Below, piece after piece: positions 3,437-8,553 of a stretch of 31,024 bases of DNA. The stretch lies in the NCBI RefSeq assembly GCF_003334305.1, contig NZ_QOWS01000035.1. One strand, given 5' to 3'. Source of the DNA: Escherichia coli. GTDB lineage: Bacteria > Pseudomonadota > Gammaproteobacteria > Enterobacterales > Enterobacteriaceae. Every line of letters begins with the position of its first letter. Positions within the stretch are counted from its first letter, which is position 1. Both the position numbers and the translations under genes were made by a program. The notes under the pieces were generated by a model. That model did no database searches, was not told the DNA's origin, and saw only the letters and a program-made list of their open reading frames with translations.

Positions 3437-4758
3437 CGCGACAGTTTTGCCAATAGCGTTTTGCGCGTGATCCCTAACTGACGGGCGGCTTCGGTTTTGT
3501 TGCCGCCCGTTTTCTCCAGTGCCGCCAGAATCACTTCTTTTTCGACTTCCACCAGCGGCTGAATATCCTGACTTTGCCCCAGCGGGATCGGCGTACTGGC
3601 AATCGCCAGCGGCAGCTCGCGTTCGGAAATATATTCCCCGGTCAGCAGCACCACCGACCTTTCCACCGCGTTTTCCAGTTCACGAATGTTTCCCGGCCAG
3701 TCGTAGTGGATCAGCAAATCCATCGCCTGTGGCGTAAAGCCTTTTACCGCCTTGCGATTACGCTCGGCAAAACGCTGAAGAAAATGGCTAGCCAGCAGAG
3801 GGATATCCTCCCGCCGTTGCCGCAGCGATGGTACTTCAATCGCCACCACATTCAGGCGATAGTAGAGATCCTGGCGAAAACGCCCGGCATTCACCTCTGC
3901 GGCAAGATCGCGATGGGTCGCCGCAATCAGCCGGACATCAACCGAGATAGTCTGGTTGCTACCGACACGCTGAACTTCGCGCTCCTGAATCGCACGCAGC
4001 AGACGCACCTGCATCATCGGCGAGATATCGCCAATTTCATCGAGAAACAGCGTGCCGCCGTCCGCCTCAACAAAGCGCCCTTCCCGGCGTTTATCGGCTC
4101 CAGTAAACGCCCCTTTTTCGTGACCGAACAATTCAGATTCCAGTAAGGATTCGTTGAGTGCCGCACAGTTGAGCGTTACCAGCGGTTTTTCGCTACGTGC
4201 GCTACTGGCGTGAATCGCCCTGGCGACCAGCTCTTTACCGGTGCCGGAATCGCCGTGGATCAGTACCGTGGCTTCCGATGGCGCGACGAGGGCGATTTCA
4301 CTGAGCAGGTGTTGCATCGCCGGGCTTTTACCGACCATACCGAACTGGCTGGCAGTCACCGCAGGTGTTTCAGCATCAATACTGTGCGTATGCGCGAGCG
4401 CTTTTTCCAGCGTCGCCTGTAGGTTATCGAAATCCAGCGGCTTGATGAGATAATCCAGCGCCCCAGTTTTCAGTGCCTCTACCGCCGTCTCGACGCTGGA
4501 GTACGCAGTCATAATCAGCACCGGAATTGCCGGGTTTAACGCTTTGATCTCTTTCAGCGTGGCGATGCCGTCCATCTCCGCCATTCGCACATCGCAAAGC
4601 ACAAGATCAAAAACCTGTTCCCGCACCTGCTCCAGCGCCTGTCGCCCGCTGTTCGCCAGCGCGACGTTATAGCCCCAGCCGCGCAGTAAAGCCTGCAAAA
4701 TAGTGCAGTGGCTAATGTCATCATCCACCACCAGAATATCGATATTATCGTGCGTCAT
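3433..4758 (-). CDS. zraR: sigma-54-dependent two-component response regulator (NtrC family)
   Basis: 441 aa. Receiver domain (VVDDD...D...K), AAA+ sigma-54 activation domain with Walker A GDSGTGKE and GAFTGA motif, C-terminal HTH. Overlaps zraS by 4 nt. Confidence 0.95.
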
Positions 4759-6131
4759 CCTTGTGGGTCCTTACGCGTAATATTGACCGGAAGCCAGAGG
4801 GTGAACGTTGAGCCTTTTCCCTCCTGGCTTGCGACCTGAATTGTACCACCGTGTTGTTCAACAATATTATGCACGACCGCCAGCCCCAATCCGGTGCCTT
4901 CGGCTTTGGTGGTGAAGTACGGAGTGAAGATGGCTTCAAGCTGATCTGCCGCAATTCCCTTACCGCTGTCGGTAACGCTGATTTTCACGCCCGCGCCGCT
5001 TTCGCTGACCGTCACGCTAATCACGCCATGCTGACCAATCGCCTGAATAGCATTGAGATAGAGATTCAACAGGACCTGAGTCAGCCTGTCCGGATCGGCC
5101 TGAATTTCCGGTAATGTGTCGTTGGCGGTAAAGCGTAACTGGATCTCCCGGCTGTTTGCATCCTGGCTTACCAGCTGTAATGAGTGGTTAATCAGCGTGT
5201 TGAGATCCACCGCCTGCAAAGCCAGATGCGTTGGCTTAACCAGTTCCAGCAACTCGCTTACCACGCGGTTTAAACGGTCGGCTTCTTTCGCCATCACCTG
5301 CGCCAATTGATGCGCTTCTCCCCCTGCTGGCGCGCGTTCGGCAAAGTATTTCGCCAGTCCTTTAATCGAGGAAAGTGGGTTACGGATTTCGTGGGCAACG
5401 CCTGCCGCAAGATGCCCCAGCGCCACCAGCTTCTCTTTGCGCTTCATTTCATCTTGTAGAAGCTGGCGCGAGCGCAGATAGCGGCGATACCAGAAGAATG
5501 ACAATACGCTTGCCAGCAAGACCGTCGCCAGGGCGAAGAGGATAATCAGGGTGTTTCTCTGCTCACGATCTTCGGCACTCACAATATTACTGGCGTCGAA
5601 AGCGATGAAAATTGCTTGTGGTGTTGCGGCATACTGCTGCATATGGCGCATCCGGTGCATTCCAGCAGCAAACATCGGTTGAAACTGGCGATAAATTTCC
5701 AGAACAGGCTCGCCGTCTGCGCTATCGATCCGCCGCCACGCTTCTTCATCTCCAGGATGTAACTGCTGCATTTCCTGCGGGGAATAAAGCTGTTTTCCCA
5801 CCATGCCGGAGTTGCTATGCATCACGATTGTTCCTTGTTCATCCGTGACCGCAAACCAACGTACTCCAGGCTGCCCGGCCATTTCTTCCAGTAAGGCCTG
5901 CTGCTGCGCATGATGCATGCGCATCCCCATGCCGACGCGCGAGCCGGATTCAAGAGCGCGAATAAGTACACTGCCTTTTTCCAGCAGCGTTTGTCTGGCG
6001 GCGGCAGTCTCGCGCCCATAATCGCGAATCACCGTCACCGCAAACAACCCTACCAGCCCAACAATGACCACGGGGAGGATCGCGCTTAACCATTTAGCTA
6101 AGGAGTCTTTAGAACGTTGCATAAAACGCAT
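4755..6131 (-). CDS. zraS: sensor histidine kinase
   Basis: 458 aa. Two transmembrane segments around a periplasmic domain, H-box (HEIRNPL) and HATPase motifs (DxGxG, GxGLGL). No in-frame start further upstream (stop 14 codons up). Confidence 0.93.
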   Translation of the reverse strand: MRFMQRSKDSLAKWLSAILPVVIVGLVGLFAVTVIRDYGRETAAARQTLLEKGSVLIRALESGSRVGMGMRMHHAQQQALLEEMAGQPGVRWFAVTDEQGTIVMHSNSGMVGKQLYSPQEMQQLHPGDEEAWRRIDSADGEPVLEIYRQFQPMFAAGMHRMRHMQQYAATPQAIFIAFDASNIVSAEDREQRNTLIILFALATVLLASVLSFFWYRRYLRSRQLLQDEMKRKEKLVALGHLAAGVAHEIRNPLSSIKGLAKYFAERAPAGGEAHQLAQVMAKEADRLNRVVSELLELVKPTHLALQAVDLNTLINHSLQLVSQDANSREIQLRFTANDTLPEIQADPDRLTQVLLNLYLNAIQAIGQHGVISVTVSESGAGVKISVTDSGKGIAADQLEAIFTPYFTTKAEGTGLGLAVVHNIVEQHGGTIQVASQEGKGSTFTLWLPVNITRKDPQG

Positions 6132-6229: not shown

Positions 6230-6275
6230 GAGTAAAAATGACTCGCTACCCGCAGCAGGCGAGTCATTTTTACTC
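6230..6275. promoter_or_regulatory. ZraR upstream activator site (perfect inverted repeat)
   Basis: gagtaaaaatgactcgc (6230-6246) and gcgagtcatttttactc (6259-6275) are exact reverse complements separated by 12 bp, lying between two divergent sigma-54 promoters. Confidence 0.75.
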
Positions 6276-6795: not shown

Positions 6796-7491
6796 TCAGA
6801 ACGTTTTCTCGTTGGGTTGCCAGCGACAGAAATCAGAGTTTGCCACTAACAGTAATTGCGAACCTTCGGGCGCTTCCAGCCATGCCACGCTGACATCAAC
6901 AGAAGAGCGGCTCTGGCGGCGCTCGATATGCGCTATCGCCTGCGAATCTAAATCAGGTTTAATGGTTTGCCCTTCGCAGGTGGTCACGGTCTGTTCCATC
7001 GCATGCCAGCGCCCCTGGCGCAGCACGACTCTCCCCTGACGTAAGGCATCGCTAATCTGGCGGATCTGATCAGCACGATAACGGTATAAATCGATTTGGT
7101 CGTTAGAAAGCTGCTGCTTTTCCCCATCGGATTCACGTTGCATAAAGCTCAGATCACCGCGATCGTCAAAACGCGCGCGAATGTTCACCGGCGGTTTGCT
7201 GTAAACATTGATATTGATGAGCGTGAGGTTATCGCCCTGCCAGCGATACTCTCGCGTCGTGGTATCGCCACTGCGCCACGGGCTAAACACGGCAAGCAGA
7301 TGCACATTATCGCCGCTGTCTTTTCGCCAGATGCGTACCGCGCCCTGGTCTTCAGCAAATCCACTGGCGGTAAAGGGAGGAAGTGAAGAGTTGTGACTAC
7401 AGGCAGTGAGAAACAGAGCGCCTGCCAGCATCAATGATCGACGCCAGAAAGACAAAAGGGGTGAAACCACCCCTTCGTTAAAACTGTTCAC
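6796..7491 (-). CDS. yjaH: putative lipoprotein of unknown function (YjaH-like)
   Basis: ORF with lipoprotein-type signal (WRRSLMLAGALFLTAC, lipobox LTAC). Start is uncertain: GTG at 7497 or 7491, or ATG at 7431. I chose 7491 because it gives 231 aa, the length I recall for YjaH; no clear SD at any candidate. Confidence 0.7.
   Translation of the reverse strand: MNSFNEGVVSPLLSFWRRSLMLAGALFLTACSHNSSLPPFTASGFAEDQGAVRIWRKDSGDNVHLLAVFSPWRSGDTTTREYRWQGDNLTLININVYSKPPVNIRARFDDRGDLSFMQRESDGEKQQLSNDQIDLYRYRADQIRQISDALRQGRVVLRQGRWHAMEQTVTTCEGQTIKPDLDSQAIAHIERRQSRSSVDVSVAWLEAPEGSQLLLVANSDFCRWQPNEKTF
7444..7476 (-). terminator. intrinsic terminator downstream of hupA
   Basis: Minus strand AGGGGTG-GUUU-CACCCCT hairpin followed by TTTTGTCTTTCT, about 30 nt after the hupA stop. 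Confidence 0.75.
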
Positions 7492-7503
7492 TGCCACGCA
7501 ATC

Positions 7504-7776
7504 TTACTTAACTGCGTCTTTCAGTGCCTTGCCAGAAACAAATGCCGGTACGTTAGCTGCGGCAATTTTGATTTCTTTACCGGTCTGCGGGTTGCGGCCA
7601 GTACGCTCAGCGCGGTGGTTCACTTTGAAGGTACCGAAACCAACCAGTTGTACAGCATCGCCTTCTTTCAGAGACTCAGTAATTGCAGCCAGAGTGGACT
7701 CCAGAGCAGCTTTAGCCTGGGTTTTGGACAGTTCTGCTTTCTCTGCAATTACATCAATCAGTTGAGTCTTGTTCAT
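7504..7776 (-). CDS. hupA: DNA-binding protein HU-alpha
   Basis: 90-aa [17 protein letters not shown]...[12 protein letters not shown], recognised as HU alpha. Confidence 0.97.
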
Positions 7777-7962
7777 AAGTTATCCTTACAATGTGTTTAT
7801 CGCTTGCTAAGCATCGAGTGCGACGGAAATGCCAGAATAGCACTCTCCTGCATACACGCACCGATAGCCACTTTTTTTCGCCCCCCAAATGTAGACCAGA
7901 CGGGGGGCGAAAGGGAAGACTCCAGGTACGACAAATCAGGCGTTAAATCACGTTTTCTGGTC

Positions 7963-8553
7963 TTATTGCTGAAAAATTATACCAATATTGCTCTCACCCG
8001 CCTCACGCAGGTCTGCCCTAAGGCCTTTTATCAGCTCGATATCGCGTTCTTCGCACTCAGCTAAAAGTCGGAATATTTCCCACTGAATGTCCCATTCTTG
8101 CTCTACAGCTGGGTTTTCTTTAAGCTCTTCATCGCTCATTTCGCGACCAGCCTGAGTCATTTCCAGCATCGCAACGGTCGTGATGGAGGTCTTACTCACT
8201 TCCACCGCGTGTTCGAGCGTTTCACCACTCAAACGCGAATGGACCAGTTCACTTAACGCCACGCAGGCATCGATTGCCGGATAAACGCCGTACAGATCGA
8301 AATCGTCGGCTGAAGGAATCGCTTCTTCAAATTTCTCCAGTTGGCTGTCGAAATTTACTTTTGCGTCTTTAACGGTCAGCGTTTCCCAGATGAGATCGAG
8401 AATACGACGGTAAATTTGCCCATCACCAAAACCGGTTTGCTGGCAGAACATGGCGTAATTGGGGTACATGCGTTCGCATAAGCAAGCCATGAAAGTGACA
8501 TGCTGCCAGCTTTCCAGGCGCTCCAGACGCAGATGAATTGGGTTTTGTAACAT
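7963..8553 (-). CDS. yjaG: DUF416-family protein of unknown function (YjaG-like)
   Basis: 196-aa ORF, last gene of the nudC-hemE-nfi-yjaG cluster on the same strand. Confidence 0.85.
   Translation of the reverse strand: MLQNPIHLRLERLESWQHVTFMACLCERMYPNYAMFCQQTGFGDGQIYRRILDLIWETLTVKDAKVNFDSQLEKFEEAIPSADDFDLYGVYPAIDACVALSELVHSRLSGETLEHAVEVSKTSITTVAMLEMTQAGREMSDEELKENPAVEQEWDIQWEIFRLLAECEERDIELIKGLRADLREAGESNIGIIFQQ

Follow-up and report, generated by a model that had tools for sequence, protein, structure and literature searches.

The window analysed here is a stretch of 31,024 nucleotides of the Escherichia coli chromosome, written so that the genes of interest lie on its complementary strand, arranged as follows:

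9277-10341, minus strand, hemE
8596-9273, minus strand, nfi
7963-8553, minus strand, yjaG
7504-7776, minus strand, hupA, the gene for HU-alpha, with its ATG at 7776
7452-7476, minus strand, the intrinsic terminator of hupA (GAAGGGGTGGTTTCACCCCTTT followed by TGTCTTTCTG)
From a GTG at 7497, minus strand, yjaH in its longest mechanical open reading frame

Because the hupA terminator falls inside the longest yjaH frame, the true start of yjaH is probably located further downstream than the GTG at 7497. The region between yjaG and hupA holds the inverted repeat that is the subject of this work, and the 221 nt around the repeat were found as a single copy, with at least 99% identity, in 5388 of the 5421 complete E. 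coli genomes; within this region the RefSeq annotation of E. coli genomes contains yjaG and hupA and nothing else. A repeat element of the REP/BIME type was considered and rejected, the 221-nt region occurring at a median of one place per genome in the 5421 genomes. As a separate observation, in the O157:H7 strain 9.1_Anguil (NZ_CP076235.1) the match ends at query base 136 (window position about 7845, in the hupA leader) and is found at two places in the record, which suggests an insertion or rearrangement inside the hupA leader of this strain.

The repeat search identified two arms of 11 nt each, at 7876-7886 (TTTCGCCCCCC) and 7902-7912 (GGGGGGCGAAA), that are 100% complementary and are separated by 15 nt, the whole repeat corresponding to positions 4200145-4200181 of U00096.3. 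The initial annotation had described a GC-rich stem in the context of yjaG and hupA, and in these respects it was right: the repeat exists, the gene context is correct, yjaG and hupA both lying on the minus strand, and the seven T residues noted ahead of the stem on the plus strand (7872-7878) are the same run as the seven A residues behind the stem on the minus strand. Its 9-bp core (tcgcccccc/ggggggcga) is also accurate, but its loop, given as 14 nt, counts 15 nt. Folding of the region as RNA yielded -29.8 kcal/mol for the minus strand (z = -3.8) and -25.6 kcal/mol for the plus strand (z = -4.0), with none of 200 shuffled sequences folding as well in either case, and the stem folded as DNA yielded -14 kcal/mol (z = -4.8). 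When perfect inverted repeats of at least 11 bp with loops of 3-20 nt were counted, five distinct places were found in the 31 kb of the window, whereas random sequence generated by a first-order Markov model has 0.125 per window, repeats of this length being about 40-fold rarer in random sequence. The inverted repeat is real and goes beyond chance, and since it does so by far, regarding its complementarity as a coincidence requires that the C-run and the G-run be each independently constrained. An additional complementarity of 8 nt, between the loop (AGACCAGA, plus strand, 7893-7900) and the region of the yjaG stop codon (TCTGGTCT, plus strand, 7956-7963), was treated as chance because other genera have not kept its upstream partner.

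The position of the repeat with respect to the transcription of hupA was established from published starts, determined by primer extension or S1 mapping and by 5' RACE. As entered in Table 1 of PMC2760140 on the basis of Kohno 1990 and Claret 1996, the known p1 start of hupA lies 105 nt upstream of the ATG, and the 5' RACE experiments of Mendoza-Vargas 2009 placed the hupA start at -105 as well, the same as the classical studies (PMC2760140). The supplement of that paper labels the -105 start 'Known, hupAp1' and assigns to it the -35 box GTCTTCCCT, and the -10 matrix scan there picks TCTACATTTG in an entry that stands in the neighbouring row labelled -45, probably owing to a mix-up of rows. 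Our conversion of coordinates was checked against Term-seq rows with printed flanks, according to which 4200253 is window position 7804 and 4200605 is window position 7452. The elements of the promoter, in the sense orientation of hupA, are then distributed as follows:

7881 (U00096.3 4200176), minus strand, +1 of hupA, the last G of the G6 run, from the ATG at 7776 and the published -105
7882-7887, minus strand, discriminator TGGGGG, -6 to -1, G-rich (five of six bases G)
7888-7893, minus strand, -10 hexamer TACATT, -12 to -7, inside the loop and ending exactly 7 nt upstream of the published start
7894-7911, minus strand, spacer of 18 bp, TTCGCCCCCCGTCTGGTC
7912-7917, minus strand, -35 hexamer TTCCCT, -36 to -31, three of six bases matching TTGACA
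7876-7886, minus strand, 3' arm of the repeat, GGGGGGCGAAA, -5 to +6, extending from the discriminator, most of which it includes, across the start site into the first transcribed bases
7902-7912, minus strand, 5' arm of the repeat, TTTCGCCCCCC, -31 to -21, comprising the last base of the -35 hexamer and the upstream part of the spacer

The -10 hexamer matches the consensus at four of six positions, including the A at -11 and the T at -7. It is because the -35 hexamer matches at just three of six that a consensus promoter scan missed hupAp. This hexamer reads TTCACA (five of six) in Kluyvera, Pluralibacter, Erwinia, Pantoea, Dickeya and others, and its weakness in E. coli is in line with a dependence on activators.

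With the start at 7881 the repeat does not lie between the yjaG stop codon and the promoter region of hupA, where it had been placed, and overlaps the core promoter itself. Moreover, because the start is inside the arm nearest hupA, the hupA mRNA never contains the hairpin and retains no more of the stem than its last 6 nt. This bears directly on the proposal, also made in the initial annotation, of a 5'-UTR structure, which may be conceived as a riboswitch, a thermosensor or a protein-binding leader. Such an element is favoured by the strong fold predicted for the repeat and by its location ahead of the hupA ATG, and by nothing else, while the 5' arm and the loop are absent from a transcript that starts within the 3' arm, no Rfam match and no covariation were found, and no second hupA promoter further upstream is reported in PMC2760140, which gives a single known p1 and whose extra 5' ends, at -52 and -4 from the ATG, all lie downstream of it; we hold the probability of a structured leader of this kind to be close to negligible. 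Much of the value of the present analysis resides in this correction, since it is tempting to read a strong intergenic GC hairpin as an RNA structure, and the mapped start excludes this hairpin from the hupA mRNA. As to the other roles that had been suggested for the repeat, nothing was found in favour of an insulator or a pause element, and the label of protein-binding site applies trivially, to the binding of RNA polymerase, and in no other sense.

Intrinsic terminators resemble the hupA repeat in having a perfect, G/C-rich stem that is intergenic and downstream of a stop codon. They differ from it in that their stem encloses a loop of about 3-8 nt and is followed by a U-tract, whereas the hupA repeat has a loop of 15 nt and its T-run precedes the stem on the plus strand. 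On that strand the stem is followed by AAAGGGAAG, and in the sense direction (minus strand) the order is TTT-stem-loop-stem-A7, so that a U-tract follows in neither orientation, and an intrinsic terminator was rejected for both, as the initial annotation had already concluded. The published 3' ends agree with this: in the Term-seq data of Adams et al. 2021 (PMC7815308), which cover three growth conditions, no 3' end was present at 42000xx-42001xx on either strand at the published depth, nor within the 10 nt or so downstream of window position 7876, the ends recorded being those at 4200251/4200253 (hupA leader), at 4200389 and, strongly, at 4200605 (hupA terminator, window 7452). In the terminator scan the hupA terminator (7476-7455) was the sole match in the region, with none between yjaG and hupA. 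A search of the repeat against Rfam gave no match at the gathering score, the best permissive match being a eukaryotic miRNA model with E = 1, a value expected by chance.

There would be one further RNA in which the hairpin could act, that is, yjaG read-through RNA, where it might form a protective stem at the 3' end, a processing site, or a terminator or pause devoid of a U-tract that insulates hupAp. The stem is very stable in E. coli (-29.8 kcal/mol) and no other terminator separates yjaG from hupA, both of which favour such a role; the missing 3' end at or near the stem in the three Term-seq conditions (PMC7815308), the missing U-tract and a 15-nt loop outside the range of terminators count against it, and so does the comparative evidence.

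This evidence was obtained by scanning one genome per species on the basis of YjaG, which provided 80 Enterobacteriaceae loci, in 78 of which hupA follows yjaG, with an intergenic length constant to within 1 nt. The 86-nt alignment included 79 sequences, namely the window and 78 loci, of which 46 were distinct. Compensatory changes in the stem, which had been proposed as a check of its conservation, were looked for in the 79 sequences and none of the 11 pairs had changed on both sides. The proportion of paired cells for the 11-pair structure in this alignment was 81.2%, against a shuffle mean of 81.3%, and six of the 11 pairs depart from pairing solely through unpaired cells. At position -3 the C:G pair has become C:A or another non-pair in 17 of the 46 distinct sequences, uncompensated, and the G-run as a whole shows uncompensated replacements of G by A or T in about 40% of the distinct sequences. 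Predicted hairpin stability ranged across genera between -24.4 and -7.6 kcal/mol, with a median of -14.3 kcal/mol.

Per-position conservation, measured as the majority frequency over 61 distinct intergenic sequences, followed the elements of the promoter. Its mean was 1.00 in the -10 hexamer, which does not vary among the 79 aligned sequences or the 11 loci sampled further away, 0.998 in the rest of the spacer (-20 to -13), 0.96 in the C6 run and 0.91 in the G6 run, where -5, -1 and +1 are invariant and -3 falls to 0.61. In the outer stem the 5' arm TTTCG had a mean of 0.73 and its partner CGAAA one of 0.997, positions +2 to +5 being invariant in the 79 aligned sequences. Conservation is thus higher in the loop than in the stem, and the invariant block has its boundary inside the stem. 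This is the reverse of the pattern of an RNA hairpin and argues, together with the lack of covariation and with a stability that decays to -8 kcal/mol in other genera, against a role in yjaG read-through RNA, which we judge to be highly improbable. The conservation pattern is that of a promoter and not that of a hairpin, and the greater conservation of the loop and the one-sided variation of the stem point to a signal in the DNA rather than to a folded RNA. The length of the C-run is itself variable, with C7 in Citrobacter amalonaticus leading to a spacer of 19 bp and C5 in Kluyvera genomosp. 3 to one of 17 bp.

Beyond the Enterobacteriaceae, 11 loci, a thin sample, were reached by protein searches and contig look-ups. 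In Erwinia, Pantoea, Paramixta, an Erwiniaceae isolate and Dickeya, the -35 hexamer TTCACA, the 18-bp spacer, the -10 hexamer TACATT and the G-run are all kept. The arms of the Erwiniaceae and Dickeya oppose CCCCCT, CCCCCA or CACCCT to GGGGGG or GGAGGG, with changes on one side only, and in the same set TTCG, TCGG and TTGG occur in the outer 5' arm while the 3' arm (GGGGGGCTG) stays fixed. An apparent compensation in the outer stem of Pantoea (T:A to C:G and C:G to G:U) was rejected as covariation because sister Erwiniaceae share the 3' arm and vary on the 5' side alone. In an AT-rich relative with a 2.4-Mb genome (L085, CP133959.1), TCTACATTT survives and both arms are gone. Further away, in the neighbourhoods L086-L090, whose YjaG is about 50% identical, the intergenic region is AT-rich and unalignable, or hupA is not adjacent.

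Taking together the published start, the layout of the elements and their conservation, we consider, with a probability of roughly 85%, that the inverted repeat is simply hupAp, the core sigma-70 promoter of the HU-alpha gene, and that the complementarity of its two runs is a by-product. This promoter has been known since the 1990s, and in comparison with its descriptions (Kohno et al. 1990; Claret & Rouviere-Yaniv 1996; RegulonDB hupAp1) the locus and the -105 start are the same and nothing differs; our assignments of the -35 and -10 elements agree with the matrices of PMC2760140, and the upstream CRP/Fis region is conserved. The hupAp literature that we examined contains no discussion of the complementarity between the spacer C-run and the discriminator G-run. 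In the mechanism that we propose, RNA polymerase, aided by CRP and Fis bound upstream, would melt the DNA in the middle of the apparent hairpin and start at the last G. The C-run in the spacer and the G-run in the discriminator would be two separately constrained parts of the promoter, and their complementarity would follow from those constraints without being itself selected. The hairpin could fold in yjaG read-through RNA alone, and nothing indicates that it would be relevant there. The palindromic look of the hupA promoter is hence most likely incidental, and a structural role for the C6/G6 symmetry is unlikely.

The upstream regulation of hupA is in the hands of CRP and Fis (PMC2760140; PMC9221221), with the explicit statement that 'FIS activates the hupA gene' (PMC9221221). 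Two features upstream of the repeat may be related to these regulators:

7948-7956, minus strand, invariant block AAAACGTGA, -75 to -67, majority frequency 0.995
7964-7987, minus strand, predicted Fis site TATTGGTATAATTTTTCAGCAATA, about -106 to -83, at the end of yjaG, a matrix prediction from supplement file 6 of PMC2760140

The first of these is probably the left half of the CRP site that has been described for hupA. With respect to DNA topology, hupA is listed in a review table as being activated by DNA relaxation (PMC8301835), whereas G/C-rich discriminators usually accompany repression by relaxation (PMC8422995; PMC9221221). Stringent or supercoiling-sensitive promoters, such as those of stable-RNA genes and fis, share with hupAp the G/C-rich discriminator and a suboptimal -35 element, as well as an expression peak in early growth with activation by Fis (PMC9221221). 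They typically have a spacer of 16 bp (PMC9221221), in contrast to the 18 bp of hupAp, and they are repressed by relaxation, unlike hupA as reported (PMC8301835). In view of the reported activation by relaxation (PMC8301835), we dropped as a firm claim the notion that the G-rich discriminator makes hupAp dependent on supercoiling or ppGpp.

Two loose ends are left by the simple promoter picture, which explains neither of them. One is the activation of hupA by relaxation reported in spite of its G-rich discriminator. Another difference from the stringent promoters is that the G at position -5 is favourable, and not unfavourable, for the stability of the open complex, through contacts with sigma region 1.2. 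The other is the near-invariance of the C6 run and of the spacer between -26 and -13 (7894-7907, minus strand; CCCCCCGTCTGGTC), which is almost invariant in the 61 distinct sequences and is unusual in this for a sigma-70 spacer. The motifs TGGTCTA and CTGGTC within it may resemble half-sites of operators of the HutC/GntR type and of FadR.

Both loose ends would find a place in a role of the C6/G6 symmetry at the level of DNA, either as a cruciform or hairpin that depends on supercoiling and hides the -10 hexamer, or as a palindromic operator, with its centre near -13, to which a dimeric regulator would bind, the cruciform being possibly bound by HU with autoregulation as the outcome. In favour of such a role, the repeat exceeds chance expectation by a wide margin and its DNA fold is stable (-14 kcal/mol, z = -4.8), conservation of the C6 run and of the spacer is unusually high, and extrusion at high negative supercoiling would explain the activation of hupA by relaxation (PMC8301835). 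We also considered the symmetry that an operator would have: the C6 and G6 cores reach 0.96 and 0.91, with variation at -3, and the outer halves are asymmetric, at 0.73 and 0.997. HU prefers junctions of the cruciform type, and the title of the 1990 study by Kohno reportedly speaks of autogenous control. Against all this, the changes in the G-run are uncompensated, the outer arms are conserved on one side alone, and both arms are dispensable in L085. A 15-nt loop between G/C-rich arms of 11 bp is, besides, a poor substrate for cruciform extrusion, and we know of no regulator with a site like the C6/G6 palindrome. We regard a DNA-level role as quite improbable. Its most specific version, in which the C6 and G6 runs would form a supercoil-sensitive structure, recognised by HU itself, that occludes the -10 hexamer when negative superhelicity is high, seems to us very improbable. 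Were it true, it would amount to a topology-coupled autoregulation of HU-alpha, and it would account for a promoter activated by relaxation despite a G-rich discriminator as well as for the near-invariant spacer.

Downstream of the promoter that we assign to the repeat, the hupA transcript begins with a conserved leader:

7777-7881, minus strand, 5' leader of hupA, 105 nt, nearly invariant in Enterobacteriaceae, with a mean majority frequency of 0.98 from +7 to +105

An inner stem of this leader, GAGTGC (about 7845-7840) with GCACTC (about 7820-7815), is kept in Erwiniaceae and Dickeya, the loop being different between genera. The loop tolerates an ERIC-like insertion of about 123 nt, which is carried by Dickeya fangzhongdai and by one D. 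zeae contig but is lacking from another (L081, L096, L097). The Term-seq ends of the leader, 4200251 and 4200253, correspond to window positions 7806 and 7804, 28-30 nt before the hupA ATG, and the minimum free energy of the whole leader has a z-score of just -1.15. According to the supplement of PMC2760140, 454 sequencing detected extra 5' ends of hupA at 52 and 4 nt upstream of the ATG, and in the row labelled -45 the -10 box belonging to the -105 promoter, TCTACATTTG with its C at -13, is entered as matching the sigma-38 type. These additional ends and the -45 row could represent processing sites, minor promoters or a mix-up in the table.

Other features were observed elsewhere in the window. 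Its longest inverted repeat, at 6230-6275, is a perfect one of 17 bp (GAGTAAAAATGACTCGC and GCGAGTCATTTTTACTC) with a loop of 12 nt, situated in the divergent region that adjoins the open reading frame 4755-6131, which resembles the sensor kinase gene zraS. We presume that this repeat is the known binding palindrome of ZraR. Another perfect inverted repeat, of 11 bp (GCGTTAGCTGA and TCAGCTAACGC), is located at 476-513, and its 16-nt loop is itself palindromic (TTTTTCGCGAAAAA). Matches above the Rfam gathering score were obtained for the sRNA sroH at 17570-17730 on the plus strand (201 bits), for a TPP riboswitch at 11777-11877 on the plus strand (74.8 bits), and for 'Pseudomonas sRNA P26' at 27066-27127 on the minus strand (74.5 bits), the last coinciding with an 11-bp hairpin at 27067-27092.
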